From an uncultured Planctomycetia bacterium (GTDB lineage Bacteria; Omnitrophota; Gorgyraeia; Duberdicusellales; 4484-171), in assembly GCA_964536865.1 (NCBI GenBank), contig CAZHYN010000001.1, positions 16,195 through 80,194 on the forward strand: a stretch of DNA of 64,000 nt. Direction: 5' to 3'. Shown here piece by piece: positions 33,371 to 64,000 of this stretch. The stretch's first letter is position 1. Each line of letters opens with the position of its first letter. Both the position numbers and the translations under genes were made by a program. The notes under the pieces are model-generated. The model was not told the DNA's origin, did no database searches, and saw only the letters and a list, made by a program, of their open reading frames with translations.

Positions 33371-33400
33371 GAGGAACAATGAAAAAGAAATTTAAAATTA

Positions 33401-44606: not shown

Positions 44607-45226
44607 AACTCATTGAGGCAGAAAAGAAAAGTTCCTCTAGGGGAGGAGAGGTAAAAAAACGGTTACGTTTCTCTTTCCTAGGAGCTCTTAGAGGACGGTG
44701 GGCCTTCTTTAAGGAGGCCTTTTCTACTAATCGTAAAGTGTTTGTAGGAGATATTAGCTTGATTAATCGAATTCTTATGGGAGTAGCTATCCTTCTCGGT
44801 TTTTATGTAGTGGTAAACAACACTCTTTCTTTTCTCGCTCTACCTCGAAAGATAGAAAAGACTATGCAGGTAAAAACTAGGAATTTTAAGATTTCTTCTT
44901 TGAAGGAGTTATCTATTCTAAAAGAAGCTTCCTACTATTTAGATAAAGTAAAAAAGAGAGATATCTTTGCAATGGTGATAGAGAAGCCCAAAGTGAAAGA
45001 AAAGGAGGAGAAAAAGTTAATTAAAGAAGTAGAAGAGAAAACAAAAGATTTAAAATTGGTAGGGATTGCCTGGTCAGACAATCCTGATGCTATGATTGAG
45101 GATACCAAGGTAGAAAAGACCTATTTTGTCAAACAGGGAGATATTATAAATGGTGTAAGGATAGAGAGGATTTTTAGAGATAAAGTGGTGTTAACCTATA
45201 AAGGAGAAAAGATAGAGTTAAAATGA
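44567..45226 (+). CDS. Bitopic inner-membrane protein, possible secretin-coupling partner (GspB/GspC/PilP-like)
   Basis: Single TM (ILMGVAILLGFYVVV) with a periplasmic C-terminal beta-rich domain; sits between the ExeA-like and secretin genes. Confidence 0.45.
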   Translation: MVSGSSTPERELLKLIEAEKKSSSRGGEVKKRLRFSFLGALRGRWAFFKEAFSTNRKVFVGDISLINRILMGVAILLGFYVVVNNTLSFLALPRKIEKTMQVKTRNFKISSLKELSILKEASYYLDKVKKRDIFAMVIEKPKVKEKEEKKLIKEVEEKTKDLKLVGIAWSDNPDAMIEDTKVEKTYFVKQGDIINGVRIERIFRDKVVLTYKGEKIELK

Positions 45227-48161: not shown

Positions 48162-49915
48162 GAAAAGTTATTATCTCTTTTATAATTTTATCGATTTTAA
48201 TAGTCTATCCAGGGTTTCCTTTTTCCTCCAGAGAGGAAAATGATAAATTATCTAAAAGAATTTCTCTAAATTTCCAAAATATTGATATTCTAGAAGCATT
48301 AAAGTATATTGCTATAAAAGGAGGGATAAATATTATTCCTACCAGAAAAGTTTCAGGGAGGGTAACTCTTAAGGTAGATAACGCTCCTATAAAAGATATT
48401 TTTGATATTATGCTCCGCTCCAATAATTTAGCCTATGATAAGAAAGGGAGTATCTACAATGTGATGACTGAAGAAGAGTATAAAGCCCTCTATGGTAAAA
48501 GTTTTTCTGATACTAGGAAAGTGAAAGTATTCCATCTTACTTACGCTATACCAGAGCAGATTATGAAACTCTGTGAGAATATGAAAAGTGAGATTGGAAA
48601 GATATTTTTGGATTCTGAATCGGGTAGTTTAGTAGTAATTGATACTCCTCAGAATATAGAAGAGATAAGCAAAGCTATAGAAGATATAGAGAGCAAAAAA
48701 ACGGTGATTAAAGTATTTGATTTAAAGTACGCTAATGCTAAAGTTATAGCCGATAAGCTTAAGGAGCAAATTACTAAAAAAGGCATAGGATTTGTTCAAG
48801 CAGATGAAGCTACCAGTCAAGTAGTTGTACGAACCCTGCCAGAGAGGATGGAAGAAGTTGAAAAGATAGTTGAGGAGCTGGATAAGAAGACAAAAGAAGT
48901 GTTAATAGATGCAAAAATCGTCAAAATTACCTTCTCTCGAGAGCTAACCCGAGGAATAGAGTGGGAAGGGCTTTTTGATGTAGCAAGAAAGTACGGTCTT
49001 ACTTATATTGGTTCCTACCCTTTTAGTTTCGTAAGTCATACCACTACAGGCAGTTGGCGTTCACGAAAGCAGGTCTGGCAGGATACCGGATACGTTGGTT
49101 CTTACCCTTTCAGTGGTACAGCTTTTAATTATTCTAATAGCGGTAAAGTAGTAGGGGTTGAAAAGCTTCATGTAGGAGTGATAGGAAAGCATGATGTTGA
49201 TGCTCTATTTAAGTATCTCAACACTTTAGGGGAGACAAAAATTGTAGCTAATCCTAAACTAGCGGTAGTAAACAATCAGGAAGCACGCATTCACATTGGA
49301 GAAAAACAAGCCTATATTACAAATACCACTACTCAGACAGCAAGTACCACTACGGTAGCGGAGGAAGTTACCTTTGTAGATACAGGAATTCAACTTTCCG
49401 TCACTCCAACCATAAATGAAGAGGGTTTTGTTACTATAAAGTTGAAACCGGAAATAAGCAGTGTAGCTTCTTATTTAGTTACTGCCTCCAATAATAAGAT
49501 TCCCATAATCACCACCTCCACCGCAGAAACAACAGTAATTGTAAAAAATGCCACCACCATTATTATTGGGGGCCTAAAAGAAGAGAAGGAGGAGAAAAGT
49601 TCCAAGGAAGTTCCTGTGTTAAGTAAGATTCCTATGATAGGAGCCTTTTTTTCCTCAAAAAATAAAACCAAAACTCGCTCAGAACTTCTTATCTTGGTCA
49701 CTCCCCATATAATTAAAGGGGATGAGCTTACTACTGGATATCAGAGAGATTTTGGGCATCGTCTGGATAAAGAGGATCAACCTTACGCTTCCTTCTCTCC
49801 CCAAAAAATAGAATTTGAGTGCAAACCTTATCAATCTTATCCTCGCTTAGATGAAAAGGAGTCTTTTAAATTAAAGCCAGCAAGGGTTTCTTATGAAGAA
49901 GATCCCAAAGGTTGA
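48158..49915 (+). CDS. Secretin (GspD/PilQ/MshL family), paralog 2
   Basis: About 65% aa identity to the 45223-46962 ORF over the N-terminal domains; same secretin core. Confidence 0.8.
   Translation: MRKVIISFIILSILIVYPGFPFSSREENDKLSKRISLNFQNIDILEALKYIAIKGGINIIPTRKVSGRVTLKVDNAPIKDIFDIMLRSNNLAYDKKGSIYNVMTEEEYKALYGKSFSDTRKVKVFHLTYAIPEQIMKLCENMKSEIGKIFLDSESGSLVVIDTPQNIEEISKAIEDIESKKTVIKVFDLKYANAKVIADKLKEQITKKGIGFVQADEATSQVVVRTLPERMEEVEKIVEELDKKTKEVLIDAKIVKITFSRELTRGIEWEGLFDVARKYGLTYIGSYPFSFVSHTTTGSWRSRKQVWQDTGYVGSYPFSGTAFNYSNSGKVVGVEKLHVGVIGKHDVDALFKYLNTLGETKIVANPKLAVVNNQEARIHIGEKQAYITNTTTQTASTTTVAEEVTFVDTGIQLSVTPTINEEGFVTIKLKPEISSVASYLVTASNNKIPIITTSTAETTVIVKNATTIIIGGLKEEKEEKSSKEVPVLSKIPMIGAFFSSKNKTKTRSELLILVTPHIIKGDELTTGYQRDFGHRLDKEDQPYASFSPQKIEFECKPYQSYPRLDEKESFKLKPARVSYEEDPKG
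49054..49119 (+). repeat. Near-identical 66-nt block shared by the two secretin paralogs (copy 2)
   Basis: See copy 1. Confidence 0.8.
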
Positions 49916-50870
49916 GAAAGTTGACCTAAATAAGATATCTTTATCTTTGGTACTTTTTATTTCTTTTCTCTACTTTCCCTACGTTTATACCCAAGAGAAG
50001 AGTGTTTCTTTAAAGGAGGAATATCGGAAACTAAAGGAGGCATATGATCAGGTAGTTAAAGACAGAGATAATCTTTTATTTCAGGCAAAAAATCTCCTGA
50101 AGTATAAAAAGAAGGTTAGGGAGCTGGAGAAAGAGCTCCAAGATTTACTCAAAGAGAAAGAGAAGTTTGATTTAGAGATTAAAAAAAGGGAAGACTATAT
50201 TAAAGAGCTTAAGAAGAAAATTAAGGAGCTTACCCAAGAAAATACTCAGCAGTTGGAGCAAATCGCGGCTTTAAAAAATTATATTGAAAAGATGGAGGTT
50301 GAATATAAAATAATTAATGAGACAAGGAAGAAAATTAAGGAGTTAAAGGACGAAAAAAGAAAGTTAAAAGGTGAGATAAGGAAATTAACTGCTAAGATAA
50401 AGAAGCTAGAGGACGAAAAGATCGATTTAAAAGCAGAGACTTTGGTATATAAGAGGCAATTCTACGAAATAAGGAGAAAGTATGAGGAGGCATTAGCTAA
50501 GAATAGAAGATTGGAAAAAAAATTAGCTGAGGTTCCTAAAAAGTTTGCTGAGATTGCTAGAGAAAATAAAGCTCTTATAAAAGAAACTGCGTTGATGCAT
50601 TATAACTTAGGAGTTTTTTATACCCAACATAAGGAGTATAAGCGAGCAATTGCTGAATTTGAAAAAGCAATTGAGCTTAATCCTGACGACCCTTATGCTC
50701 ATTTTAATCTTGGTTATATTTATGCTGAGTATCTCCTAAATCGTCCCAAGGCTATAGAACATTTCAGGCATTACCTCCGGTTGGCAGATAAGAACGATAA
50801 AGATGTTGATTGGGTAAAAAAATATATTCTCACTTGGCAGGCTTGGGAAGGAAAGACCCCTCTTAAGTGA
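49893..50870 (+). CDS. Membrane-anchored coiled-coil protein with C-terminal TPR repeats, paralog 2
   Basis: Same architecture as the 46962-48161 ORF; shared LHYNLGVFYTQ...NLG(V/Y)IY(S/A)EY TPR block. Confidence 0.65.
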   Translation: MKKIPKVEKVDLNKISLSLVLFISFLYFPYVYTQEKSVSLKEEYRKLKEAYDQVVKDRDNLLFQAKNLLKYKKKVRELEKELQDLLKEKEKFDLEIKKREDYIKELKKKIKELTQENTQQLEQIAALKNYIEKMEVEYKIINETRKKIKELKDEKRKLKGEIRKLTAKIKKLEDEKIDLKAETLVYKRQFYEIRRKYEEALAKNRRLEKKLAEVPKKFAEIARENKALIKETALMHYNLGVFYTQHKEYKRAIAEFEKAIELNPDDPYAHFNLGYIYAEYLLNRPKAIEHFRHYLRLADKNDKDVDWVKKYILTWQAWEGKTPLK

Positions 50871-51484: not shown

Positions 51485-52300
51485 ATTTATACTGAATATT
51501 GGGGCCTAACCTGTAAGCCATTTGAAAATGTAGCTGATCCTAACTTTTTCTATTGTTCTTCCACTCATCGAGAGGCTTTAGCAAGGATGATTTATGCGGT
51601 AAGAGAGAGAAAGTTAGGATTTCTTCTATTGGGCAGATATGGTTTAGGCAAGACTTTTTTGAGCAAGGCCTTAGAGAAAGAGTGTTCCGATAGTAACTAT
51701 AGGTTTGTATCTATCTCCAATCCTCGACTTACTCCTTTAGAACTAGTTAAAGAAATCAGCTATCAGCTGGGAGTAGTTCCAGTAGATCAAAGTTGGACTA
51801 AGGTTGATTATCTTCATAAGATAAAAGAGACTTTGGAGAAAAATTACCAGGAAGGTTTCCATACTGTCATTATAATAGATGAAATGCAAAGTATTGAAAG
51901 TAACGAAGTACTTGAAGAAATAAGGCTATTTTTCAATTTGCAGAAAGAGGTTATCTTTTTTACTTTAATCCTTTTGGCCCAATTATCTTTTAAAGAAAAT
52001 TTAGAGAAGTTTCCTCACTTCAAACAAAGGATACCTATAAGATATGAACTGTCTCCTTTGGATGAAGGAGAAACAAAAAAGTATATAGAGTTCCGCTTAA
52101 AAAAAGCAGGTGCAGCTAAAGAGATTTTCTCTTCCAAGGCATGTAAGCAGATTTATGCTCTAAGTAAAGGAGTTCCTCGCTTGATAAATAATATTTGTGA
52201 CTTAGCTCTTTTAGCAGGGTACTTAGATAGTTTGGAAGTAATCAAAGAAGATACTATCCTTCAAATAGCTCAGGATCTGGGGGAGACACCAAATGATTGA
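51485..52300 (+). CDS. ExeA/GspA/MshM-like AAA ATPase, paralog 2 (probable ATT start)
   Basis: Walker A LLGRYGLGKTFL and Walker B IIIDEMQ. The frame is open from 51482, after an in-frame TGA; the upstream residues YTEYWGLTCKPFENVADPNFFY align with the N-terminus of the 43746 paralog (FKILGFDKEPFSTSPDPDFFY), so the real start lies before the track's ATG at 51587. SD GAGGGAGGTG (51471-51480) sits 4 nt before ATT at 51485. Confidence 0.7.
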   Translation: MYTEYWGLTCKPFENVADPNFFYCSSTHREALARMIYAVRERKLGFLLLGRYGLGKTFLSKALEKECSDSNYRFVSISNPRLTPLELVKEISYQLGVVPVDQSWTKVDYLHKIKETLEKNYQEGFHTVIIIDEMQSIESNEVLEEIRLFFNLQKEVIFFTLILLAQLSFKENLEKFPHFKQRIPIRYELSPLDEGETKKYIEFRLKKAGAAKEIFSSKACKQIYALSKGVPRLINNICDLALLAGYLDSLEVIKEDTILQIAQDLGETPND

Positions 52301-53309
52301 TTTTTCAAAAATTTTTGGAAACGGTAAAGATAAAGAGAAACCTTCATCCCCCATTCATTTTGCTAAGGAACCACCCAAAGAGAAACTGCCTTCTAAGAAG
52401 GAAGCAAAGAAAATTTCCGAGAAAGAAAAAATGTTAGGTGGTATAGATGTGAAGCTTCTATATAAGGAATCTCTTGTCTTAGCAGATAAAATTTTCAGCT
52501 CTTCCCAACCTATTTTACCGGAAGATGTAAAAGAAGTTAAGGAAATAGTTGAGAAAATTGTAGATTGTATAACTAGAGAGGGCGAACGGTTGGTTGAAAT
52601 CACCTTTAATAAGCTCCCCCAGGAGTACCACTTTATTTCTCTGAATATGGTTAACGTGTGTGTTCTATCTCTATATATAGGAATAGCCTTAGGTCTTTCT
52701 CGAGATAAGCTTATAGATCTAGGAATAGCTGCTCTCCTTCATGATTTAGGGATGAAAAAATATCAAAGTATAATTGATCAACCTCGAAAATTAACTCCCC
52801 AAGAGTATAAGGAAATAGAAAATCATCCTATTGTAACTGCCCAGATGCTTTCTCATCTTAAAGAGTTAAGCAGTAAAATCTTAGAGAGTATAAGTCAAGA
52901 ACATGAACGTATGGATGGCTCGGGTTATCCTAAAAATTTAAAGAAAGAAGAAATTGATGAGTTTGCACAAATAATGGCAGTAGTAGATGTTTATGAAGCT
53001 TTAACTCACTCTCGTCCCTATCGCGAGGCTTATAAACCCTCAGAGGCAATTAAAATTATGTTAGAGATGAAAGAAAGATTCAGCTATACAGTGATGAATG
53101 TTTTTTTAGAAAAAATAGGAATTTATCCTAAAGGAAGTTATGTAGAGCTTAACACAAGAGAGATAGCCCAGATAGTACGACAGAATCCTAAACTTCCTTG
53201 TTATCCGGTAATCAAAATAATTTACAATAGTAAAGGAGAAAAATTAGATGAGCCTAAAGAGGTAGATTTGAGCACTAACCCGACAGTTTATATTAGGAAG
53301 TGTCTATAA
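52293..53309 (+). CDS. HD-GYP domain protein (putative c-di-GMP phosphodiesterase)
   Basis: AALLHDLGM and HHERMDGSGYP motifs. Confidence 0.8.
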   Translation: MIDFSKIFGNGKDKEKPSSPIHFAKEPPKEKLPSKKEAKKISEKEKMLGGIDVKLLYKESLVLADKIFSSSQPILPEDVKEVKEIVEKIVDCITREGERLVEITFNKLPQEYHFISLNMVNVCVLSLYIGIALGLSRDKLIDLGIAALLHDLGMKKYQSIIDQPRKLTPQEYKEIENHPIVTAQMLSHLKELSSKILESISQEHERMDGSGYPKNLKKEEIDEFAQIMAVVDVYEALTHSRPYREAYKPSEAIKIMLEMKERFSYTVMNVFLEKIGIYPKGSYVELNTREIAQIVRQNPKLPCYPVIKIIYNSKGEKLDEPKEVDLSTNPTVYIRKCL

Positions 53310-53328: not shown

Positions 53329-54681
53329 ATGAAGAAATTTTCAGTATATATTTTAACAGCATTAATACTTTTTTCTCTTTATAATTTTGTGAAACTAAGG
53401 GTAGAGTTTTCTAATGAGAAAAAAAAAGGAGAGATGCTTAGTCAAAGATTAAAAGAAGCCGAAAGAGAGTCTCAACACCTAAAAGAGCTAATAAATAGTA
53501 GGGAGAAGGAGATAGATAAATTAAAGAGAGAATTAGAGGAACTTAAGTTTCCTCAGCGTCTAAAGAACGCCCTTGCTCAAGCGCAGGACCTTATAAGAAA
53601 ACTGAACGATGATTTAAGTAACTTAAGAAGAGAAAAAACTCGCTTGGAGAAGGAAAATTTTTCCCTTAAAGAGAGAATAGAGCTTAGTAACAAACGAATT
53701 ACTCAATTACTTGCTCAACTGGAGGAGGTAAGAGACAAATTTGAAGTTAGCAAGAAAGAAAGAGGTAGAGTTATAGCAAGAGAAATTACCAGATTGAAGA
53801 AAGCGTTAGAGGAGAAAGACAAGGAAACAGAGGATTTAAGAAAGGATTTAGAGAGGTATAAAGAGAAAGCTTCAGATTTAGAAAGAAAGGCCAAGTTCTT
53901 AAGAGCTCAACTTACTAAAGTTAAAAGAGGATTTTCTAAAGATACTTCAGATAGAAAGAGAGTGAAGCAATTAATGGCTTCTTTGGAGAGGGTAAATAGA
54001 GAAAAAGATACACTTTCTGCGGAGGTTAGACAACTTAGGTTAGAGAGAGAACAGCTACAGAGAAAAATTGATGAATTGTCCAAACTTAATCAAGATTTAC
54101 AGCATCAGGTGAGCCAACTTAAAAAGCAAATAGAGGAAAAAGAAGAGCAGATAGTTAGTCTAGAGAAGAAAATTAAGAAAGGTGTCTCTTCAGTTGATAC
54201 AGAGACAAGACTCCTAAGAGCTAGACTAGCTCTCCAGAAAGAGGAATTTCAAAAAGTAAATACTCTCTATCAAGAACTAAAAGAGCAACTGAAAGATTTA
54301 GCAAAGATTATCTCTGATAAAGAACAAGAGATAGAAAGTAAAGATAAAGAGATAGCTAGATTAAATCAGGAAATTTCTTATTTAAAACTTAGATTAGTAG
54401 ATTTAGAAGATAGGTTGAAGGAGACACAGAGTATTCAGGACGAAGTTTTAAGAAGGTTTTCTGAAGTAGTAGAATTAAATTCTGCTCTTCAAGAAAAGTT
54501 AGGGACGATTTCTACTTTTTTAGGTAAGCCCAGGGTTAAGAAGAAAACAACCTTAAGAGAAGAATTAACTTTACCTGAAGAACCAGAAGTAGTAAGTTCT
54601 TCGGAAGGGGGGGAGAAGGAGCGAGTAGAAAGTTTAAAGAAGCAGGTAGAAGTTATCCTTCATGAAAGTTCACAGGAATAG
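53329..54681 (+). CDS. Membrane-anchored long coiled-coil protein
   Basis: N-terminal TM then about 400 aa of K/E/L/R heptad-like repeats; no catalytic motifs. Confidence 0.55.
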   Translation: MKKFSVYILTALILFSLYNFVKLRVEFSNEKKKGEMLSQRLKEAERESQHLKELINSREKEIDKLKRELEELKFPQRLKNALAQAQDLIRKLNDDLSNLRREKTRLEKENFSLKERIELSNKRITQLLAQLEEVRDKFEVSKKERGRVIAREITRLKKALEEKDKETEDLRKDLERYKEKASDLERKAKFLRAQLTKVKRGFSKDTSDRKRVKQLMASLERVNREKDTLSAEVRQLRLEREQLQRKIDELSKLNQDLQHQVSQLKKQIEEKEEQIVSLEKKIKKGVSSVDTETRLLRARLALQKEEFQKVNTLYQELKEQLKDLAKIISDKEQEIESKDKEIARLNQEISYLKLRLVDLEDRLKETQSIQDEVLRRFSEVVELNSALQEKLGTISTFLGKPRVKKKTTLREELTLPEEPEVVSSSEGGEKERVESLKKQVEVILHESSQE

Positions 54682-55537
54682 TTTTCTCTGGATAAAAACT
54701 TTTTTAAAACTACCACTAAAGATTATCTTTCTTTTAAGTGTAGGGGGAATTTTACTTTTTTCCTATGCCAGCTATTCTAAAACTCCTCAAGAAGAGGCTA
54801 AGGAGCATTATCGCTTAGGGGAGATTTATTACCAGCATGGTCTTTATAAGGAAGCAGAAAGAGAATTTAAGAAAGCCTTACAGTTGCTCAAAAGAGAAGT
54901 TCCTTTGGAAGAGGAAGGGTCATTTCAAAAAGAGGGGAAACCTCCCTCTCCTTCTGAGGAATCTCAGTATATTATCTCCCCGGGCGATGTTCTTTATATA
55001 AGTGTGTGGGAGAATCCTGATTTGACTGGGGAGGTTATCGTACGCCCCGATGGGATGATTTCTTTCCCTCTTATAGATGAGGTAAAAGCAGCTGGGTTAA
55101 CTATATCTGAGTTAGATAAAGAGATGACTGAAATGCTTAAGGAATATATTCGTTTCCCTGACGTTTCTATCTCTCTAAGAGCAATGGGGGGTCAAAGGGT
55201 AATTATTCTCGGAGAAGTAAAAAGTCCTGGAGTTTACTCTTTAAAAGGGAGAAAAACTGTTTTAGAGGCAGTAGCTTTGGCAGGAGGATTTACTAAGGAC
55301 GCAGTTTTAAACAGTGTAATAGTAATAAAAGGAGGGCTCAAAAACCCCCATCCTAAACGGGTAGATTTAGCCAGCGCTCTTAAAAAAGGAAAGATGAAAG
55401 AAGATATTGTGTTAGACTCTCAAGATATAGTCTTTGTTCCAAAAAAGTTTATTGCTGATTTAAATTATTTTTTAACTCAGATTTTGGGTCCTATATCCCG
55501 AGGAGTTTATACTGCCAAGGAAATTCAACGCTGGTAA
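54662..55537 (+). CDS. Polysaccharide export protein (Wza-like)
   Basis: Signal/TM, TPR-like helix, and Poly_export motif region (SPGDVLYISVWENPDLTGEVIVRPDGMISFPLIDEVKAAGLTISEL) followed by SLBB-like segments. Confidence 0.7.
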   Translation: MKVHRNSFLWIKTFLKLPLKIIFLLSVGGILLFSYASYSKTPQEEAKEHYRLGEIYYQHGLYKEAEREFKKALQLLKREVPLEEEGSFQKEGKPPSPSEESQYIISPGDVLYISVWENPDLTGEVIVRPDGMISFPLIDEVKAAGLTISELDKEMTEMLKEYIRFPDVSISLRAMGGQRVIILGEVKSPGVYSLKGRKTVLEAVALAGGFTKDAVLNSVIVIKGGLKNPHPKRVDLASALKKGKMKEDIVLDSQDIVFVPKKFIADLNYFLTQILGPISRGVYTAKEIQRW

Positions 55538-55570: not shown

Positions 55571-55867
55571 GTGATGAGTTTTTGGCAGAAAAAATATAAA
55601 AAGAATCCCAATATGGTATTTAGAAAGATTGCTGATGAGGTAATTTTAGTGCCCATAAGAAATAAAGTAGGTGATTTACAGAGTATCTATACCTTGAATG
55701 AAGTTGGTGCACGTATATGGAAGTTAATTAATGGAAAGAGAGAATTAGCCAAGATTAAGGAGATTCTTTTGGAGGAGTTCAGCGTCGATGTTCCTCGAGT
55801 TGAAGAAGATTTAAAAGCATTTGTACAGAAATTAGAAAGAATAGGAGCAGTAGAGGAAGTTAAGTAG
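55571..55867 (+). CDS. PqqD-family peptide-binding protein (RiPP recognition element)
   Basis: 98 aa; PqqD-like pattern (VFRKIADEVILVP...YTLNEVGARIWKLINGKRELAKIKEILLEEF). Confidence 0.75.
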   Translation: MMSFWQKKYKKNPNMVFRKIADEVILVPIRNKVGDLQSIYTLNEVGARIWKLINGKRELAKIKEILLEEFSVDVPRVEEDLKAFVQKLERIGAVEEVK

Positions 55868-55873
55868 CATAAT

Positions 55874-56995
55874 ATGGAGTGTATTTATATACCTAAGATT
55901 TCTTATAGGGAGTTTAGTGAATCAATTCACAGGAAAGTAGGAGAAAAACGAATTCCCCTTAATGGATCTATAGAGGTTACTTTGCGTTGTAACTTAAGAT
56001 GTCTACATTGTTACTGTAGTTACAACTCTCAAAAAAAAGAATTAAGTTATAAAGATTTCTGTCGTATTTTTGACGAGATTGCTGATATGGGGTGTTTGTG
56101 GCTGCTTATTACAGGAGGAGAGCCACTCTTAAGAGAGGATTTTTTAAAAATTTATACTTACGCTAAAAAGAAAGGATTTATTATAACACTTTTTACTAAT
56201 GCAACCTTACTTACCCCTTCCATTGTGGATTGTTTAAAAGATTATCCTCCTTTTGCGGTGGAGGTTACTTTGTATGGAATAACTAAATCTACTTATGAGA
56301 AAATTACTCGTATTCCTGGTTCATTTAACCGATGTATAGAAGGTATTCATCTTCTTTTAGAAAGAAAAATTCCTCTTAGGTTAAAAACAGTGGTGATGAA
56401 TTTAAATAAACACGAGCTTTTCAAGATAAAGAGATTTGCCGAAAATTTGGGAGTAGAGTTTAGATTTGACCCTCTTATTAACCCTAAATTAGATGGCTCT
56501 AAAGAACCTTGCAAGTTGAGAATTTCGCCACAAGAAGTTATTGAGCTTGATTTAATGGATAAAAAAAGAAAAGAAGCATGGGAGGAGTTCTGTAAAAAAT
56601 TTCCTTCGCCTATAAACTCAGAATGGCTTTACAGTTGTAGTGCAGGAAGAACTTCTTTCCACATAGATCCCTATGGAAATTTAAGTATTTGTATTATTGA
56701 AAGGTTCCATACCTACAATCTTTTAAAGGGCACATTTAAGGAAGGATGGGAAACTTTTATCCCTGAAAAAATACTCAGTCTTAAAAAAGATAATAGATAC
56801 GAATGCAATCAGTGCCAGTTAAGAGACTTATGCGATCGTTGTCCTGGGTGGTCACAGCTTGAAGCAGGTAACCCTCAGGAAGTGGTAGATTATCTTTGTC
56901 AGATAGCTCATCTAAGAGCCAAAGTGTTTGGTTTTGGCAGAGAAAGAAAGGAGGGGGAGAAAGATGAAAAAGAGAGAAAAAAAATTCTACTCTAA
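55874..56995 (+). CDS. Radical SAM protein with C-terminal SPASM domain
   Basis: CNLRCLHCY (CxxxCxxC) at the N-terminus; C-terminal Cys cluster (CSAGR...CNQCQLRDLCDRCPGW). Confidence 0.8.
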   Translation: MECIYIPKISYREFSESIHRKVGEKRIPLNGSIEVTLRCNLRCLHCYCSYNSQKKELSYKDFCRIFDEIADMGCLWLLITGGEPLLREDFLKIYTYAKKKGFIITLFTNATLLTPSIVDCLKDYPPFAVEVTLYGITKSTYEKITRIPGSFNRCIEGIHLLLERKIPLRLKTVVMNLNKHELFKIKRFAENLGVEFRFDPLINPKLDGSKEPCKLRISPQEVIELDLMDKKRKEAWEEFCKKFPSPINSEWLYSCSAGRTSFHIDPYGNLSICIIERFHTYNLLKGTFKEGWETFIPEKILSLKKDNRYECNQCQLRDLCDRCPGWSQLEAGNPQEVVDYLCQIAHLRAKVFGFGRERKEGEKDEKERKKILL

Positions 56996-57137
56996 ACCTC
57001 AGATAAAAGAAGTTAATTTAGTGCCTCAAGAAGCAGTCCTTCTTGGTTGTAAAACTACAGCTGATCCCAGTGGGAGAACAGTTGGGCGGAATAATTGTGG
57101 TAACAGAGATAACTTTTGTCAAACCGCGGTAAGTTAG
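56964..57137 (+). CDS. Candidate RiPP precursor peptide (57 aa, 3 Cys, C-terminal Ser)
   Basis: MKKREKKFYSKPQIKEVNLVPQEAVLLGCKTTADPSGRTVGRNNCGNRDNFCQTAVS; strong SD GGAGGGGGAG (56951-56960) then ATG; overlaps the 3' end of the rSAM gene in another frame; charged leader-like N-terminus with a Cys/Gly/Asn/Thr-rich C-terminal core. Confidence 0.45.
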   Translation: MKKREKKFYSKPQIKEVNLVPQEAVLLGCKTTADPSGRTVGRNNCGNRDNFCQTAVS

Positions 57138-57166
57138 TTGTAATAAGTTAACTTTATTTAGTAAGG

Positions 57167-58039
57167 ATGCTAAAGGTAGAAATAGGGGGAGTGGCTATTT
57201 CTCTTTCTTTTGTAGATGGTAAAGGTTGGATACCTCAAGTTAGTAAAGCAATGCATTCTTTTCTTACTAGGAGAAAAAGGTTCGATTTAGCTCTTAAGGT
57301 TCACTGCGGTTTTCTTCCCCATCTGAATGTAAAGAGAGTTGTGTTTAATTCGGGAGGAAACTGGACTCTTTTTAAGGATAGAAATAATAGATTAGTTTTT
57401 TCTCTTACTTCCCCTGCTACCGGTCCTCATCCTTATGCTTTGGCAGTTGTTGATTCTCAATTTAAAGTAGGGAATTTATACCTTAGAGAGCCAAATTACT
57501 TTCTTTCTAAAAAAGCTATTGTGAATCCTTTAGAGTACCCCTTAGATGAGGTTTTAGTAGTGCATCTTCTCTCAAGAAATAGAGGAATACTTCTTCATGG
57601 ATGCGGAATTAAATACAAAGGAGAGGGGCTACTTTTTTTAGGAACTTCGGGAAGAGGAAAAAGCACCATTGCCAATCTTTGGAAGGAAGAGAAAGAAGTC
57701 GCCATTTTAAGTGACGATAGAATTGTTGTCCGCAAGAAAGGCTCCAATTTCTGGATATATGGTACTCCCTGGCACGGAGATGCAAAATTATGTTCTCCTC
57801 AGAAAGTAGTTCTAAAGAAGATATTTTTTCTTAAGCACGGCAAGAAAAATTCGCTTAAAAAGATGAAGTTAAGTGAAATAATTTCTCAGTTAGTTGTCTG
57901 TTCTTTCCCTCCTTTTTGGGATAAGAAAGGTATGAAGTTTATCTTAAGTTTTTGTTCTGATTTAGCAAAAGTTCCTTCTTATGAGCTAAATTTCCTACCT
58001 AACAGGAGTGTTTTGGATCTTATCAAACGTAAGGTGTGA
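57167..58039 (+). CDS. HPr kinase-like (HprK C-terminal domain-related) putative Ser kinase
   Basis: P-loop GLLFLGTSGRGKSTIANLW followed by LSDDRIVV and GTPWHGD, as in the HprK/P C-domain. Confidence 0.65.
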   Translation: MLKVEIGGVAISLSFVDGKGWIPQVSKAMHSFLTRRKRFDLALKVHCGFLPHLNVKRVVFNSGGNWTLFKDRNNRLVFSLTSPATGPHPYALAVVDSQFKVGNLYLREPNYFLSKKAIVNPLEYPLDEVLVVHLLSRNRGILLHGCGIKYKGEGLLFLGTSGRGKSTIANLWKEEKEVAILSDDRIVVRKKGSNFWIYGTPWHGDAKLCSPQKVVLKKIFFLKHGKKNSLKKMKLSEIISQLVVCSFPPFWDKKGMKFILSFCSDLAKVPSYELNFLPNRSVLDLIKRKV

Positions 58040-58536
58040 AGTGCCAAAATTCTGAATTTTTAAAGTTAAGTAAGGATATATTAGAGAAAGGGTTTTCTCT
58101 TCGCTTTCAGGTAAGGGGGGCAAGTATGTACCCTTTTATCAAAAGCGGTGATACCGTGGAAATAGAGCCAAAGAATATCTCCAAAATAAACTATGCGGAT
58201 ATTATCCTTTACGCCAATTACGAAGGAAAAATTGTAATCCATCGAGTAGTAAAAAAAATCAAGAAGAATAATGAAACTATCCTAGCAACTAGAGGAGACT
58301 TTCTGCCACCTTCCTTAAGAGAGTTTGTTCCTTCAGAGAAAGTATTAGGTAAAGTTGTAGTTATTAGAAAGGCAAATAGGATGTTTAGAATAGATAGGGG
58401 ATTTTTAAGGCTGTTGAATATTGTATATACCAAACTTTTACCTATTATTAGGTGGGGACATAGTTTTGGTGCCAAACTGCTAAAGTTTACCCCGAGCCAC
58501 AGAAAGTTACCTGTGACATTACATCGGGGTGGATAA
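58036..58536 (+). CDS. S26/S24-family (signal peptidase I / LexA-like) serine peptidase
   Basis: GASMYPFIKSGD matches the catalytic Ser box (GDSMxP-like); candidate Lys at IVIHRVVKK. Confidence 0.6.
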   Translation: MKCQNSEFLKLSKDILEKGFSLRFQVRGASMYPFIKSGDTVEIEPKNISKINYADIILYANYEGKIVIHRVVKKIKKNNETILATRGDFLPPSLREFVPSEKVLGKVVVIRKANRMFRIDRGFLRLLNIVYTKLLPIIRWGHSFGAKLLKFTPSHRKLPVTLHRGG

Positions 58537-58576
58537 ATGTCTATCCAAATACCTCCAAGCATAATTTCAAAGCAAT

Positions 58577-59731
58577 ATGCGATTGTTATATCGGGGTGGC
58601 CGGGGTTTACTAAAGCAAATTAAAAATATTATGAGGGGAGGGGATAACTTTATTACTGTATTGAGCTGTTCTATCTGGAATAAGGAGAAAAGTGGAGAGA
58701 TAGAGGAAGTAATAAAGAATAATTTAGATTGGGATTATGTATTAAGGAAATCCCGTAAAGAGGGGGTTTCTTCTTTGATTTATTATTGCTTAAAGAAATT
58801 CGAGTTACAAAAATATTTGCCTTTTAAGACCTTAAAAACCTTAGAGGAAGCCTATTATAAAAATTCTCTAAGGAATATTATTATGATTAGTGAAACAAAA
58901 AAGGTATTAGAATCTTTTAAAAAAGAAGGTATAGAATCAATTATTCTTAAAGGAGTTTTCTTGGCAGAGAAAATTTATAGGAATATTGCTTTGAGAGAGA
59001 TGACAGATGTTGATATTCTAATAAGGAGAAAAAATGTCAAGAAAGCAAATAGAATTTTAAATTCTCTAGGATACCCAACTCCGAAATACTATGAAGATCT
59101 TTTGAAAATATCTTCTTCCCTTAATACTTTAATGTATAAAGGTAATATACGAGTCCATCTTCACTGGCATCTTATAAATTCAACTTGGCCTTTAAACTTT
59201 TTAATAGAAAAAATTAGTATAGAAAGAATCTTTGAATACGCCAAACCTATAAAGATTGATACTTTAGATACTCTAACTTTGTCCAATGAGCATCTTTTAA
59301 TTTACCTTTGCTATCATCTTTTTAATCACTCTTTTGACAGGCTGATTCTTCTGGTAGATATTCTCGGCTTGTTAAATTCTTATAGTATTGACTGGAATTT
59401 TGTTATAGAAGAGGCAGAACGTTTTAAGCTTTCATTTATTCTCTATTATGTTTTATCTTTTATATCTCAAAAAAAGGAAGAAAAGGTTCCTTACTTAGAA
59501 AGATTGAAACCATCTAAATCTTATCTCAAAAAACTTCCTCCTTCTTCTTTTACTTCTTATTTTATATACCTTCTTCTTCAAAAGGGATTTAAAAAGAAGA
59601 TAAAGTTCCTTATAAATACCATTTTCCCTCCTCCCTGTGTAGTAGCTCATAGTTTCTCCATTTCTCCAAAGGAAGTAACCAGAGCTCATTATTTTTTTCG
59701 TCTTATTAAACCTTTTCTTAAATTCTTCTAA
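58577..59731 (+). CDS. PF14907-type nucleotidyltransferase family protein
   Basis: MTDVDILIRR nucleotidyltransferase motif; 384 aa; this family is often linked to HprK-like kinases and PqqD in lasso-type loci; the true start may be the downstream Met at about 58631. Confidence 0.6.
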   Translation: MRLLYRGGRGLLKQIKNIMRGGDNFITVLSCSIWNKEKSGEIEEVIKNNLDWDYVLRKSRKEGVSSLIYYCLKKFELQKYLPFKTLKTLEEAYYKNSLRNIIMISETKKVLESFKKEGIESIILKGVFLAEKIYRNIALREMTDVDILIRRKNVKKANRILNSLGYPTPKYYEDLLKISSSLNTLMYKGNIRVHLHWHLINSTWPLNFLIEKISIERIFEYAKPIKIDTLDTLTLSNEHLLIYLCYHLFNHSFDRLILLVDILGLLNSYSIDWNFVIEEAERFKLSFILYYVLSFISQKKEEKVPYLERLKPSKSYLKKLPPSSFTSYFIYLLLQKGFKKKIKFLINTIFPPPCVVAHSFSISPKEVTRAHYFFRLIKPFLKFF

Positions 59732-59754
59732 GATGTTATCAATTGTTTTTCTTT

Positions 59755-60567
59755 TTAGGAGTAAAGGAGACTGCCGTGTTTTTTAGCTTGCCTTAGAGCT
59801 AATTTAAAGGAAAGGAGAGCTATGGGAAGGAGGATAAGAAAGAAGAGAGTGAGGCAGGCTATTTCAACTTTTACTTCTTTTAGAGAAGCCCCCATAGCTA
59901 TACTCTTCCTCATACCTCTTAAAGCATAGGTTATAGGTAGAAGGTAGGAAATTTTTTGTAACACTTGCGGTAATACCTTAATAGGAAAGTAAACTCCTCC
60001 TAAAAATCTTGAAATCCCATTTAATACCCAATTAATAGGGTTTCCTCTCTTAAACACAAGAATGAAGCTTGCTGATAGAACTCCTAAGGCACTGAAAGAG
60101 AGAATGGTTAAGAGTAAAATTACTAGGGAGGAGATGAGATTTATCTTACTTAGATTGAATCCAAAAATAAGCCACCCTAAAAAAAGATACACCATTACCC
60201 TTAAAGATACAAAGAAAAAGTTCCATACCGCTCCTAAAAGTAAAATAGTACCAATACTAGTAGGAGACATAAGAAGGATTTCTAATGTTCCTTCGGACTG
60301 TTCATAGTGGATGACTTGGCTGAAACTATTTAGGGCAGCGGAGAGATATCCACTGAAGGCAAGTCCAATTAAGACAAAGGAAAAGTAGTCCCCTCCAAAT
60401 TCTTCTAAGTATTTAGAAGCTCCCTCTCCAAATAGCTTGGAGACGAAAAAGAAAGTAGCAACCGAGGCAAAAATAGAGATAAAATCTAAGAGGAAAGACA
60501 AACGGTAGCTTGAATTAATAAGAAAATCTCTCTTTAAAAAAGCAAGTAGCTTCCTAAGAAATATCAT
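59755..60567 (-). CDS. ABC-2 type transporter permease
   Basis: 270 aa with 6 TM segments; translationally coupled to the upstream ATPase. Confidence 0.75.
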   Translation of the reverse strand: MIFLRKLLAFLKRDFLINSSYRLSFLLDFISIFASVATFFFVSKLFGEGASKYLEEFGGDYFSFVLIGLAFSGYLSAALNSFSQVIHYEQSEGTLEILLMSPTSIGTILLLGAVWNFFFVSLRVMVYLFLGWLIFGFNLSKINLISSLVILLLTILSFSALGVLSASFILVFKRGNPINWVLNGISRFLGGVYFPIKVLPQVLQKISYLLPITYALRGMRKSIAMGASLKEVKVEIACLTLFFLILLPIALLSFKLALRQAKKHGSLLYS

Positions 60568-61270
60568 TCTTTATTATTTCTCCATATAAGTCTTTTAAAG
60601 AAGTTTGAATCTCCTTTATATTTTTAATTAGGAGAATTTCTCCCCTATTCATAATAGCAATTCTGTCAGCGACAGTTTCTGCTTCTTCCAAAAAATGGGT
60701 AGCAAAGAGGATTGTTTTTTTGAACTCTTTCGCTAATCTCTGCATAAGCTTTCTAAATTCTTTAGCCGTTAAGGGATCCAAACTTTTGGTAGGCTCATCC
60801 ATTATAATTATTTCCTTTTCCAGAATAAGAGTTCTTAAAAGGGAAAGGCGATGTTTGGTTCCTGTAGAATATTGCCAGAAAGGTTTGTCTAAGTCCTCTA
60901 CTTCTAAAATTTGTGAATAATTCTTTATTCTCTCTCTAATTTGATGGGAAGAAAGATTATAAATTGTAGCAAAGAATTCCAAATTCTGCTTTGCAGTAAG
61001 TTGAGGATAAAATCCATAAGTTTCCCCAGAAAAATAAGCAACCCCCCCTTTAACCTTTATCATTCCTCTTTCAGGAAGAATTAATCCACAAATTATTTTT
61101 AGAAGAGTAGTTTTACCTGCACCGTTAGGACCTAATAGAGCAAGCGCCTCCCCTCTATTTACTTTAAGATGTACTGAATTTAGAGCATAGATCCTGCGTG
61201 GGAGAAGAAAAAAATGGAAGATATCTCTCTTTATAAGAAAAGACTTGCTTAGCCCCTCTACTTCAATCAT
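60554..61270 (-). CDS. ABC transporter ATP-binding protein
   Basis: Walker A GPNGAGKTTLL, signature-like STGTKHRLSL, Walker B IIIMDEPT. Confidence 0.85.
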   Translation of the reverse strand: MIEVEGLSKSFLIKRDIFHFFLLPRRIYALNSVHLKVNRGEALALLGPNGAGKTTLLKIICGLILPERGMIKVKGGVAYFSGETYGFYPQLTAKQNLEFFATIYNLSSHQIRERIKNYSQILEVEDLDKPFWQYSTGTKHRLSLLRTLILEKEIIIMDEPTKSLDPLTAKEFRKLMQRLAKEFKKTILFATHFLEEAETVADRIAIMNRGEILLIKNIKEIQTSLKDLYGEIIKNDIS

Positions 61271-61346
61271 TTTCTAAAACCATACCAGAGACCTTATATC
61301 TTGTCAACGGTAAGAAAGTTGTGTTAAAATTTTAGAGAGTAAAAAG

Positions 61347-62744
61347 ATGAAAAAAAGAGTTTTACACCTTTCCTTATTACTAATCTCTATATCTGTAGTA
61401 GTCTTTCTACTAAGTTCTCCTTGCTTTCCCCAAGAAGAAAAAAGGTTCCAAATTGTAGGAGAGATTTTTGGTGTACCAGTACCTATTGGAAATTACTACT
61501 TTGCTAAAAGAGTAGTTTTAACTTTCAATGCCAAGTGGCGTCCTACACCTAAAGATGAGGAGGAATTGGAAGATTTGGTCTGGCAGGAACTTATTCTTTC
61601 TTATGAGGCTTATCGTCGGGGGATAGAAGCTAGTAGCAAGGAGATAGATGAGCATATAGATAAGATACTAAAAGCAGAGAAGGTAAATTTCGATTGGCGG
61701 AAAGAAAAAGAAAAGTTTGAAGAGTGGACAAAAAATAAATTGGGCGTATCTCCTCAGGTATTTAGAAATCAGATAGAACATCTAATAAAGCTAGAGAAGC
61801 TCCAGCAACAAGTAATAGAGAGTATTGAACCTGAAGTTACCGAGGAGGAAGCCTACCAGAAATTTCTCGATGAGTGTAATACTCTTTCTGTAGAGTTAGT
61901 ACAGTTTGATGAATTAAAAGAGGCAGAAAAGTTTTATAAGGAAGTTTCAAAACCTCAGGAAGAAGGAGCGTTAGAGAAACTTATTTGGGAAGATCTTCTC
62001 CTTTCCTATGAAGCATTTAAAAGAAAAGTAGAGGTAACTAAAGAAGAAATAGAAAAAAATATTTATAGGTATTTGAGAGGAAGGGAGGTTAGATTTAACT
62101 GGAAGAAAGATGAGAGAAAATTTAAAACGTGGCTTAAAGGTAATTTAGGTTTATCTCAAGAGGAATTCAAGAAATTTATTATTCACTTTGCAAAGATTGA
62201 TAAATTGAGGCAGTTAATCTATAGAAAAGAAGCTCCTCCTATTAGTGAGGAGAGATATACATATTTTCTCAGAGAGAAAAGAGATATCGAGAGAGCTTAT
62301 CAAAGGTTCTCTAAAGAATTTGGCTTTCCTCAAAATGCAGTATTGATATTTCCTACTTTCCAAGATGCTGAGGTATTTTATAAACGATTTAAGAGAGAAG
62401 CTACTCCTTGGGAAGATAGAAAAAGAAAAAAGCCTGATAGATTTAAAAGGCCGGGTTTCGTAGCTTTAGATTTTCTAATTCATATGTGGGGATTCAAAAG
62501 AGAAGATGCTTACAGGATGATAGAAAGAAAGGTTGGAGATATTTACCCTCCCGCCCCTATTTATAAAGGATATGGAGTATTTAAAATTCTTCGTGTTCGT
62601 AAAGCTAATCCTTCTGATTTTAGCAAGCGAAAAAAATACTATTTTGATAAGCTTAAGAGGATCAAAAAATATCAAAGATTTAAAGAATGGCTAAATTCTC
62701 TGAAGGAGGAAGCTAATATAAAAGTCTATAGTGATAAATTTTAA
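61347..62744 (+). CDS. Secreted protein with two tandem SurA-N/PpiD-like chaperone repeats
   Basis: Signal peptide; two units of about 115 aa share W(Q/E)(E/D)L(I/L)LSYEA...V(N/R)F(D/N)W(R/K)K(E/D)...(F/W)...LG(V/L)S. Confidence 0.5.
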   Translation: MKKRVLHLSLLLISISVVVFLLSSPCFPQEEKRFQIVGEIFGVPVPIGNYYFAKRVVLTFNAKWRPTPKDEEELEDLVWQELILSYEAYRRGIEASSKEIDEHIDKILKAEKVNFDWRKEKEKFEEWTKNKLGVSPQVFRNQIEHLIKLEKLQQQVIESIEPEVTEEEAYQKFLDECNTLSVELVQFDELKEAEKFYKEVSKPQEEGALEKLIWEDLLLSYEAFKRKVEVTKEEIEKNIYRYLRGREVRFNWKKDERKFKTWLKGNLGLSQEEFKKFIIHFAKIDKLRQLIYRKEAPPISEERYTYFLREKRDIERAYQRFSKEFGFPQNAVLIFPTFQDAEVFYKRFKREATPWEDRKRKKPDRFKRPGFVALDFLIHMWGFKREDAYRMIERKVGDIYPPAPIYKGYGVFKILRVRKANPSDFSKRKKYYFDKLKRIKKYQRFKEWLNSLKEEANIKVYSDKF

Positions 62745-62794: not shown

Positions 62795-64000
62795 ATGAAT
62801 CATCGCGAATTATCTTTAAGAGATTATCTAAGAATAATTCGCAAGAGAAAGTTTATTATAATTTCCTCTTTTATCGTCTTTATTGGTTTTTCTCTGTTTT
62901 ACACCTCAGGACAACTTCCCATTTACGAAGCTACCACGACTGTAAAGATTGAGGAAAGAAAGACAATAGCTGGTCTCCTTACTGAATGGATTGTTTATAC
63001 TCCTGGAGATATAATGGAGACACAAGTTAAAATTATAAAAGGTTTTCCTGTCCTAAAGAAGGTAGCTTTAAAACTAGGTTTAGTAAAGGAGGAAGATCCT
63101 GTTTCTAAAATTTATGAGATAGTAGGAAGGCTTCAGTCTCAAATCTCTACCGAAAGGGTTGGAAAAACTAACATTATCAAGATCACTGCTATCTCTCATG
63201 ATCCCGAAGAGGCAATGAAATTAGCAAATACAGTAGCTGGTGTTTACATTGAAGAGAATCTTTATGAAAAGAATAAGCAGGCAAGAACAGTAAGGCTATT
63301 TATTGAGGAACAGTTAACTACGCTTAAAGAGAGACTCCATAGAGCGGAAGAGAAGATAAAAAAATTTAGTGAGGAGGAGGAAAATATTCAGATTGCTGAG
63401 GAGGTTCAGAAAAAACTAAACGATCTTGAGTTCCAGTTAGCTTCTCTTCTTCAAAAATATACAGAAAAACATCCAAAAGTAATTCAAATAAAGGAACAGA
63501 TAAGAGAGTTGAGAGAGCAATCAAAGAAATTTTCTGCTAAAGCGTTAGAGTACGCACGTCTTAAGAGGGAAGTAGAAGTAAATAAAAAATTATATGCGAT
63601 GTTGAGAGAAAAATTAGAAGAAGCAAGAATTACCGAGGCAGAAAAGGTTCCCGATGTAAGTGTTGTAGATCCAGCTGTTCTTCCTAAAACTCCCATATCT
63701 TCCTCAGGAAAGTTAGGGGTTTTTGTAGGAGGAGTGTTAGGGTTAGTGGTAGGGATAATTTTAGCTTTTATTGCTGAAAATTTAGATACATCTATTGGGA
63801 CAATTGAAGATGTGGAAAGTATTGTGGGTTTGCCTGTTTTAGGAGTTGTTCCTTCTATAATCAGAGAAGTTGAAATAAAGAGAAGTTTCTTTAAAAAAAT
63901 TAGAGATACAATCTTTCCTCCCAAGATAGATGAATCTACAGAAAGGTACGTAAGATTAATTGTTTGTTATAAACCTACTTCCTCAGCAGCAGAAAGCTAT
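62795..64000 (+). CDS. Polysaccharide chain-length determinant / Wzc-GumC-like protein (5' part; continues past window end)
   Basis: MNHRELSLRDYLRIIRKRKFIIISSFIVFIGFSL (Wzz N-terminal TM), long periplasmic coiled-coil region, second TM (GVFVGGVLGLVVGIILAFIAE). Absent from the ORF track because no stop codon lies within the window. Confidence 0.7.
   Translation, partial: MNHRELSLRDYLRIIRKRKFIIISSFIVFIGFSLFYTSGQLPIYEATTTVKIEERKTIAGLLTEWIVYTPGDIMETQVKIIKGFPVLKKVALKLGLVKEEDPVSKIYEIVGRLQSQISTERVGKTNIIKITAISHDPEEAMKLANTVAGVYIEENLYEKNKQARTVRLFIEEQLTTLKERLHRAEEKIKKFSEEEENIQIAEEVQKKLNDLEFQLASLLQKYTEKHPKVIQIKEQIRELREQSKKFSAKALEYARLKREVEVNKKLYAMLREKLEEARITEAEKVPDVSVVDPAVLPKTPISSSGKLGVFVGGVLGLVVGIILAFIAENLDTSIGTIEDVESIVGLPVLGVVPSIIREVEIKRSFFKKIRDTIFPPKIDESTERYVRLIVCYKPTSSAAESY

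Follow-up and report, generated by a model that had tools for sequence, protein, structure and literature searches.

The 64,000-nucleotide stretch of contig CAZHYN010000001.1 analysed here (hereafter the window) carries at 55571-61270 a compact cassette of eight genes, the first six on the + strand and the last two, convergent with them, on the - strand, whose make-up is that of a pathway for a ribosomally synthesised and post-translationally modified peptide (RiPP). Judged from its sequence, the cassette is a member of a RiPP-like family that is well defined, very widely distributed and as yet uncharacterised, and of which the window holds an intact and complete example. All the genes described in an initial annotation of this DNA were found where it had placed them in the open reading frame (ORF) listing, but its tally of seven genes, five on the + strand and two on the - strand, was one + strand gene too low. 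The features of the cassette are as follows.

55571-55867, + strand: PqqD-family peptide chaperone (RiPP recognition element, RRE, a leader-recognising domain), 98 amino acids, PF05402
55874-56995, + strand: radical SAM/SPASM peptide maturase, 373 amino acids, PF04055
56948-56959, + strand: Shine-Dalgarno sequence of the precursor gene, AAGGAGGGGGAG, inside the 3' end of the radical SAM gene, read off the sequence
56964-57137, + strand: precursor peptide, 57 amino acids, MKKREKKFYSKPQIKEVNLVPQEAVLLGCKTTADPSGRTVGRNNCGNRDNFCQTAVS, recognised by the family signature
57167-58039, + strand: ScmC-like two-domain P-loop kinase of HprK/PEPCK fold, 290 amino acids, predicted to phosphorylate the precursor, PF27840
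58036-58536, + strand: S26 (archaeal/ER-type, Ser-His) peptidase, soluble, 166 amino acids, predicted leader peptidase, TIGR02228
58577-59731, + strand: PF14907 (NTP_transf_5) nucleotidyltransferase-fold enzyme, 384 amino acids, predicted tailoring enzyme
59755-60567, - strand: ABC-2 permease, 270 amino acids, PF01061
60554-61270, - strand: ABC transporter ATPase, 238 amino acids, overlapping the permease gene, PF00005, DrrA subfamily

The precursor peptide and its predicted modifying enzymes

The precursor gene, present in single copy in the window, probably starts with the ATG at 56964 and overlaps the radical SAM gene by the last 32 nucleotides of the latter. A strong ribosome-binding site, AAGGAGG, lies 9 nucleotides 5' of this ATG, in the same 3' end of the radical SAM gene. 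The peptide, which ends in Ser, had initially been proposed as a candidate precursor, and it proved to be a member of a conserved gene family. It fits the signature Y-x-K-P-x-I-x-x-V-x-L-x-P-(E/Q)EAVL-x-x-C-K followed by two more Cys and a C-terminal Ser, with its Cys at C29, C45 and C52 and the C-terminus QTAVS, and it could be aligned with the counterparts of three distant loci. A motif search placed such a peptide just 5' of the ScmC-like gene in 61 of 86 loci, and a profile of 38 peptides found 3192 clusters in a database of 5.8 billion proteins. Among the matches listed for this profile, all are 52-70 amino acids long and unnamed, and none has a Pfam domain; no NCBIfam model matches the precursor peptides even at an E-value of 10, and no Pfam model matches that of the window.

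Position by position, the family leader reads (K/R)(K/R)-P-Y(100%)-x-K(93%)-P(100%)-x-(I/V/L)-x-x-V(95%)-x-L(99%)-x-P(90%)-E-E-A(100%)-V-L-G-x-C(100%)-K(99%). The core is a variable stretch followed by C-x-x-P-x-x-C-S-S-x-G-S, and the last residue is Ser in 98% of the peptides. Ser is terminal in 51 of 56 peptides from species genomes and in each of the best 120 database matches (120/120), which have exactly three Cys in the spacing CK-x12-15-C-x5-C-x4-S, the second gap being mostly 5 residues, with five residues, no more or fewer, after the last Cys. We take the leader to resemble the PqqA motif K-K-P-x-F-x-x-L-x-L-G-x-E-V-T-x-Y, and its stretch Y-x-K-P-x-h-x-x-V-x-L presumably resembles the part of PqqA that is bound by PqqD. 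At comparable enzyme divergence, identity was 0.53-0.65 in the leader and 0.34-0.41 in the core; RiPP precursors usually show this stronger conservation of the leader. A test for an arms-race signature, that is for unusually fast core evolution, was uninformative, the core evolving at about the rate of the enzymes. The idea that the C-terminal dipeptide tracks the presence of the nucleotidyltransferase gene was rejected, as no such association was seen.

Two genes precede that of the peptide. The PqqD protein matches PF05402 (E 4.5e-16), and in related loci, too, its gene stands 5' of that for the radical SAM enzyme. Weak matches, all below cutoff, were obtained with the GeoRSP, lasso, PQQ and ScmD PqqD models of NCBIfam. 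The radical SAM enzyme matches PF04055 (E 2.7e-20), with the motif C39-x3-C43-x2-C46 kept in 68 of 68 relatives and seven SPASM Cys (C255, C273, C311, C314, C320, C323 and C342) kept in 63-68 of the 68. Its nearest solved sequences are SkfB (E 8.6e-12) and PqqE, and its best NCBIfam matches are AhbD, NirJ2 and MftC. A PqqD/RRE protein encoded with its maturase, a CxxxCxxC motif with a 7-Cys SPASM cluster and an adjacent short precursor gene whose leader varies less than its core are features of a generic RRE-dependent radical SAM/SPASM RiPP pathway.

The kinase-like protein and its relatives are assigned to Pfam PF27840 ('ScmC') in precomputed annotation, and 17 of 18 family members match the NCBIfam ScmC model weakly (best E 5.5e-08). 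Fold searches found an HprK/PEPCK fold, and a sequence search of the kinase profile against solved structures gave marginal HprK matches only (E 0.011). With 19.5 bits for TIGR00679 (HprK) against a cutoff of 240, the protein falls outside HPr kinase/phosphorylase proper, and it shares only the fold with true HprK/P. H144, K165 (the Walker A lysine), D183 and D184 are invariant in its family. They match the conserved and essential His-Lys-Asp-Asp motif of lasso kinases, enzymes that phosphorylate the hydroxyl of the highly conserved C-terminal Ser of their precursors (PMC9266682, a review of lasso-peptide tailoring). Motif and terminal Ser, both matching the lasso kinases, form what we regard as the strongest single argument that Ser would be phosphorylated here too.

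A direct link to the lasso systems is provided by locus L087, where a lasso-like cluster (10413-16183) sits directly beside a family cassette. This cluster encodes a PqqD protein, an NTP_transf_5 protein, an asparagine-synthase-like protein and a 53-amino-acid ORF ending in TKTR, as well as a kinase with a faint ScmC match, a methyltransferase and a transglutaminase-core protein. The cluster was used as a stand-in for PadeK, ThcoK and PsmN in the sequence comparison, and its kinase aligns to the catalytic core of the family (hhalign E 1.6e-5, probability 79%). The analogy to paeninodin-type loci drawn in the initial annotation is supported by this alignment, by the invariant H144/K165/D183/D184 motif and by the joint occurrence of PqqD, PF14907 and ScmC-like kinase genes in the L087 cluster.

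The peptidase passes TIGR02228, signal peptidase I of the archaeal/ER type (57.4 bits, cutoff 51.85), and matches Peptidase_S24 at 26.3 bits in Pfam. Its boxes G28-x-S30-M31-x-P33, H69-R70 and G87-D88 are invariant in 38 of 38 relatives and are those of Ser-His type signal peptidases. A model above cutoff and the Ser/His pair S30 and H69 agree with membership of S26B, but no 19-residue segment reaches a hydropathy of 1.6, and the membrane anchor of that family was not found. As it has no hydrophobic segment, the protein is probably a soluble, dedicated peptidase.

The nucleotidyltransferase matches PF14907 (E 1.5e-53), with G126, D144-x-D146, H247 and D261 invariant in its family. Its AlphaFold2 model (pLDDT 90.5) has as Foldseek neighbours MenT1, the lincosamide adenylyltransferase LnuA, the aminoglycoside nucleotidyltransferase ANT(2'')-Ia and the ribitol-phosphate transferase FKRP. 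The exporter consists of an ABC-2 permease (PF01061, E 5.5e-18) with about six hydrophobic segments in the hydropathy profile and an ATPase (PF00005, E 9e-24; DrrA subfamily, E 2e-46). The PqqD, radical SAM/SPASM, S24/S26 and PF14907 assignments of the initial annotation all hold.

Distribution and genomic setting of the cassette

A search of a database clustered at 90% gave 2386 relatives of the kinase-like protein at E<=1e-3, and a search with its profile recovered, at E<=1e-30, 1909 of 1.84 billion representatives. When one genome per species was scanned, a relative was present in at least 582 species genomes, from lineages that include Omnitrophota, Aminicenantes, WOR-3, Desantisbacteria, Chloroflexota, Desulfobacterota, Planctomycetes, Acidobacteriota, KSB1, Nitrospinae, Nitrospirota, Armatimonadetes and Myxococcales. 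Three long-contig neighbourhoods, one from an Aminicenantia genome, one on a contig that an Omnitrophota genome also contains (L003, identical to L009) and one from a third assembly, have a single gene order, namely PqqD, radical SAM, an ORF of 53-57 amino acids, ScmC, S24, NTP_transf_5 and convergent ABC-2 and ABC genes, with S24 either separate or fused to the nucleotidyltransferase (L001). The ABC-2 permease gene stands convergent after the nucleotidyltransferase gene in related loci, also in those from which polysaccharide genes are absent.

Neighbours of the kinase-like gene were counted with hidden Markov models (HMMs) built from clustered neighbour ORFs, and only in loci with enough flanking DNA. 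A radical SAM gene was found in 55 of 64 loci, an S24-type peptidase in 46 of 68, a nucleotidyltransferase in 36 of 62 and any ABC transporter in 16 of 36. These frequencies are lower bounds, because a simple longest-ORF caller errs in GC-rich genomes and many contigs end early. When the search was instead seeded with the peptide, all three peptides on long contigs adjoined radical SAM, ScmC and NTP_transf_5 genes; a called PqqD gene adjoined two of them as well. Fusions of ScmC to S24 (P0330), of S24 to the nucleotidyltransferase (P0405, P0409 and P0417) and of S24 to a GNAT domain likewise link parts of the cassette. The arrangement is far beyond chance, its order recurring in dozens of loci from many phyla, and the genes stay together as a unit in different phyla, in the related loci as well as in the peptide-seeded ones. 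Each of the points on which the initial annotation had said that it might fall came out, where it was run, in its favour.

Several variations on the cassette were seen. A PRMT/PrmA-like methyltransferase gene lies between the ScmC-like and S24 genes of an Aminicenantia locus (L005, 2620-3837) and a methyltransferase is fused to ScmC in P0244, so that some peptides of the family may be methylated. Five loci (L020, L023, L037, L070 and L071) have a second ScmC-like gene within a few kb of the first, in some cases along with another PqqD, radical SAM or S24 gene, which suggests duplicated cassettes. Giant DUF7483-repeat proteins with a C-terminal, gingipain-like Peptidase_C25 domain are encoded next to the cassette in 17 loci, mostly from Acidobacteriota and Chloroflexota (for example L069 4417-8007, L088 10220-16180 and L089 10490-16171), and often occupy the place that the nucleotidyltransferase and ABC genes have in the window; the N-terminus of the L069 protein is hydrophobic and signal-peptide-like. 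The 3' side of the L001 cassette (16688-19605) holds genes for a pilin-like N_methyl protein, a DUF7305 protein and a second radical SAM/SPASM enzyme.

In the window, the cassette is flanked by genes of polysaccharide export.

54662-55537, + strand: Wza-like polysaccharide export protein, Poly_export + SLBB
61347-62744, + strand: 465-amino-acid gene between the ABC ATPase and Wzc-like genes, with weak SurA-N-like and peptidyl-prolyl-isomerase-like matches below threshold
62795-64000, + strand: Wzc-like chain-length determinant, Wzz + GNVR, extending past the window end

Both flanks named in the initial annotation are therefore present (Poly_export/SLBB and Wzz/GNVR), although the 465-amino-acid gene that intervenes before the Wzc-like gene had been missed. 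Only 33 nucleotides separate the end of the Wza-like gene from the PqqD gene; the Wza-like protein matches TIGR03027 (pepcterm_export) at 128 bits, below cutoff. The gap between the ABC ATPase gene (-) and the SurA-N-like gene (+), at 61279-61330, contains back-to-back promoter-like sites, which are consensus matches only.

The window is chromosomal and carries gyrB, aminoacyl-tRNA synthetase and pyrimidine genes; the closest database protein, 98% identical, comes from a Candidatus Omnitrophota metagenome-assembled genome. Two tandem gene pairs at 45223-50870 lie just 5' of the polysaccharide-export and cassette region, and in each the gene of a PilQ/GspD-like secretin (579 and 585 amino acids) comes before that of a coiled-coil protein which has TPR repeats at its C-terminus (399 and 325 amino acids). 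At 51587-53309 two overlapping genes encode an AAA_22 ATPase similar to the XrtA/PEP-CTERM-associated ATPase (TIGR03015, 137 bits, below cutoff) and an HD_5 (HD-GYP-like) protein, and a second AAA_22 ATPase is encoded at 43746-44606. The RNA elements are a 6S RNA (22766-22925), a three-tRNA cluster (13359-13825) and one further tRNA (38387-38458), and a PyrR-binding leader (33335-33435) stands 5' of the pyrimidine operon (pyrB, pyrC, carA, carB).

A proposed pathway and its alternatives

From the domain identities, the intact catalytic motifs, the conserved and substrate-like precursor family and the conservation of the cassette, all of which are observations, we infer the chemical steps, their order and the role of the product. 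The eight genes probably constitute a self-contained RiPP pathway of leader-guided cross-linking, Ser phosphorylation, decoration by the nucleotidyltransferase, leader removal and export. The 57-amino-acid precursor would be translated and its conserved leader (Y-x-K-P-x-I-x-x-V-x-L-x-P-EEAVL) bound by the PqqD-type chaperone, which would pass it to the radical SAM/SPASM enzyme. This enzyme is predicted to put at least one cross-link into the core, most plausibly through C29, C45 and C52 in the manner of a thioether bridge. The ScmC-like HprK-fold kinase would phosphorylate the near-invariant C-terminal Ser, as the lasso kinases PadeK and ThcoK do, and the PF14907 enzyme may attach a nucleotide, a sugar or a phospho-alcohol to the phosphoserine or serine. 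The addition of hexose to phosphoserine in pseudomycoidin needs the nucleotidyltransferase gene psmN (PMC9266682). The soluble Ser-His S26-type peptidase would cut off the leader, and the ABC-2 transporter would export the product.

A number of observations weigh against this pathway or parts of it. All NCBIfam equivalogs are far below cutoff for the radical SAM enzyme, so that no characterised enzyme is close to it and the type of cross-link is consequently a guess. The HprK-like assignment of the initial annotation stands by fold and catalytic motif but not by the Pfam threshold, the Hpr_kinase_C (PF07475) match being 19.5 bits with a threshold of 33.3, and the likeness to the lasso-type kinase of L087 spans only about 77 core residues at the hhalign probability of 79%. 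The C-terminal Gly-Ser is retained with or without a nucleotidyltransferase gene. Nucleotidyltransferase and ABC genes are absent from many related loci and are therefore accessory: the core of the cassette is PqqD, radical SAM, peptide, ScmC-like protein and S24, to which the nucleotidyltransferase and the exporter are common additions, and the window has the full set. Finally, the frequent placement beside polysaccharide-export genes suggests that the product is possibly not a free secreted peptide.

This placement, which the initial annotation had not recognised as a property of the whole family, is the basis of a different reading of the same enzymes, in which the modified peptide is a dedicated part of exopolysaccharide or biofilm production (a sugar-bearing phosphoserine primer, anchor or cap) or a signal controlling the Wza/Wzc machinery. 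Beside the cassette, 16 loci have Wzc-like genes, 10 have Wza-like genes, 10 have a PEP-CTERM-type AAA_22 ATPase and 9 have HD_5 (HD-GYP-like) genes, and the AAA_22 and HD_5 pair, as found in the window, is near the cassette in 9-10 loci from several phyla. The loci linked to export genes span Omnitrophota, WOR-3, KSB1, Aerophobetes, Desulfobacterota, Pseudomonadota, Acidobacteriota, Chloroflexota and Nitrospirota. Of the 31 loci that extend 8 kb or more to either side, 11 had a Wzc-like, Wza-like or AAA_22 ATPase gene, where random genes would be expected to have such neighbours in a few percent of cases at most (our own estimate, uncomputed), and two of the three peptide-seeded loci have glycosyltransferase or Wzz/Poly_export surroundings. 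The Wza-like gene so close before the PqqD gene in the window, the psmN-dependent hexose addition and the presence of FKRP among the structural neighbours of the nucleotidyltransferase would also fit. Yet about two-thirds of the well-flanked loci have no polysaccharide genes within 8 kb, the cassette has its own exporter, and the co-location, which does not in itself prove a shared function, could be explained by shared regulation or shared genomic islands; moreover, we know of no system with a peptide primer of this kind. We regard a polysaccharide role as unlikely, and more so its specific form, in which a cross-linked peptide with a C-terminal phosphoserine extended by a sugar or nucleotide would act inside the neighbouring Wza/Wzc machinery as primer, anchor, cap or dedicated signal.

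Two further readings concern the chemistry itself. The cassette could make a small cofactor-like molecule, as in the pathways for pyrroloquinoline quinone (PQQ) and mycofactocin, where a few invariant residues are altered by a radical SAM/SPASM enzyme with its PqqD partner; here it would be drawn from the invariant EEAVL-x-x-CK stretch or the C-terminal Gly-Ser, with the remaining peptide discarded. A free-standing PqqD protein with a SPASM enzyme is also the arrangement of PqqD/E and MftB/C, the mycofactocin maturase model can be aligned along the entire radical SAM enzyme (residues 31-346), the invariant residues cluster at the leader-core junction and the extreme C-terminus, and the leader is, we presume, PqqA-like. 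However, the 105 bits of that alignment are far under the MftC cutoff, the strict Cys spacing with variable loops looks more like a peptide scaffold than like discarded material, the loci often include a dedicated ABC exporter and the neighbourhood has no conserved partner redox enzymes. We regard a cofactor as very unlikely. The ScmC-like protein might, on the other hand, activate another residue with ATP (Ser/Thr phosphorylation, elimination to a dehydro-amino acid and Cys attack on it) or be mainly a leader-binding scaffold, without any tailoring of the C-terminal Ser. Ser and Thr are common beside the third Cys (C-S-S-x-G-S), and the NCBIfam SynChlorMet ScmC model states no function; but there is no conserved lyase or cyclase partner, the most conserved hydroxyl residue is the terminal Ser itself (98%), and the lasso kinases show the same His-Lys-Asp-Asp motif and terminal-Ser rule. 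This last option seems to us highly improbable.

A role in anti-phage defence was also considered and dropped: PADLOC gave only generic likeness to radical SAM (viperin) and ABC-ATPase proteins, and no match for the PqqD, kinase-like, peptidase and nucleotidyltransferase proteins.

If the RiPP pathway proposed above is true, the cassette would represent a new RiPP class with thousands of members, concentrated in Omnitrophota, Aminicenantes, Acidobacteriota, Nitrospirota, WOR-3 and KSB1, lineages for which metagenomes are almost the only source. It would join radical SAM/SPASM cross-linking to C-terminal phosphoserine and nucleotidyltransferase tailoring, two chemistries that to our knowledge have not been seen together, the latter so far only in lasso peptides, and a soluble signal-peptidase-like enzyme would serve as its leader peptidase. 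The precursor family, with its leader motif, three-Cys scaffold and terminal Ser, provides a clear substrate, and the functions of the PF27840/ScmC-type kinases and of PF14907 are therefore directly testable. The recurrent placement at polysaccharide-export loci raises a possible link between ribosomal peptides and biofilm matrix production; were the polysaccharide reading to be true, a ribosomal peptide would be a built-in component of polysaccharide assembly across many uncultured phyla.

Comparison with known systems

No description of the cassette was found in the full-text literature; subscription papers were outside reach, and 'undescribed' is thus a provisional term. The RRE-Finder paper and a compendium of 15,000 radical SAM RiPP enzymes make no mention of a kinase, HPr, a nucleotidyltransferase or a signal peptidase. 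The novelty claimed in the initial annotation nonetheless needs qualifying: no paper on the class was found, but curated databases hold a related idea in the NCBIfam SynChlorMet models (ScmC/D/E/F, TIGR04248-04251) and in Pfam PF27840 'ScmC'. In SynChlorMet, too, an HprK-like ScmC protein occurs together with a PqqD homologue and radical SAM/SPASM enzymes. SynChlorMet has two radical SAM genes, however, whereas the cassette in the window has one and adds the S26 peptidase, the PF14907 nucleotidyltransferase, the ABC-2 exporter and a defined precursor family. The cassette also stays below all four SynChlorMet cutoffs, with 17.1 bits for ScmC (cutoff 125), 26.7 for ScmD (100), 70.9 for ScmE (400) and 73.1 for ScmF (400).

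Sactipeptide and ranthipeptide pathways (AlbA, SkfB, CteB, PapB) share with the cassette a Cys-containing precursor and a SPASM radical SAM enzyme. There the leader-recognition domain is an N-terminal fusion, whereas the cassette has a separate PqqD protein, and those classes lack the set of tailoring enzymes with a kinase and a nucleotidyltransferase; NCBIfam sactipeptide maturase models were below cutoff for the radical SAM enzyme of the cassette. The PQQ and mycofactocin pathways (PqqA/D/E, MftA/B/C) are similar in their free-standing PqqD-type chaperone and SPASM enzyme, and mycofactocin MftA also in the invariant C-terminal residues of the precursor. In contrast, the precursor of the cassette is longer and has a fixed three-Cys scaffold, an exporter is present and cofactor-using partner enzymes are not. 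Scores below cutoff were obtained for GeoRSP (35.3 of 100 and 64.8 of 400 bits), MftC (105.2 of 265), PqqE (72.7 of 381) and PqqD (33.3 of 46), and by its model scores the cassette is not a GeoRSP, mycofactocin, PQQ or true HprK/P system.

The lasso peptides of the paeninodin/pseudomycoidin type share with the cassette the trio of PqqD-like protein, HprK-related His-Lys-Asp-Asp kinase and nucleotidyltransferase, as well as a precursor with a conserved C-terminal Ser; among lasso systems, PF14907 identity was shown directly here only for the lasso-like cluster of L087. The kinase of the cassette is nevertheless of a separate family, related through the catalytic core only, and the precursor differs in being Cys-rich with a leader that we take to be PqqA-like. 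As the initial annotation had claimed, a radical SAM/SPASM enzyme and an S26-type peptidase stand in place of the cyclase and the B2 protease: neither an asparagine-synthetase-like cyclase nor a transglutaminase-like B2 protease was found among the eight genes or in their immediate flanks, and the cassette is for this reason not a lasso cluster. Instead, our analysis indicates that it most likely works like an RRE-dependent radical SAM/SPASM RiPP pathway that has borrowed a C-terminal tailoring set of the paeninodin/pseudomycoidin type.

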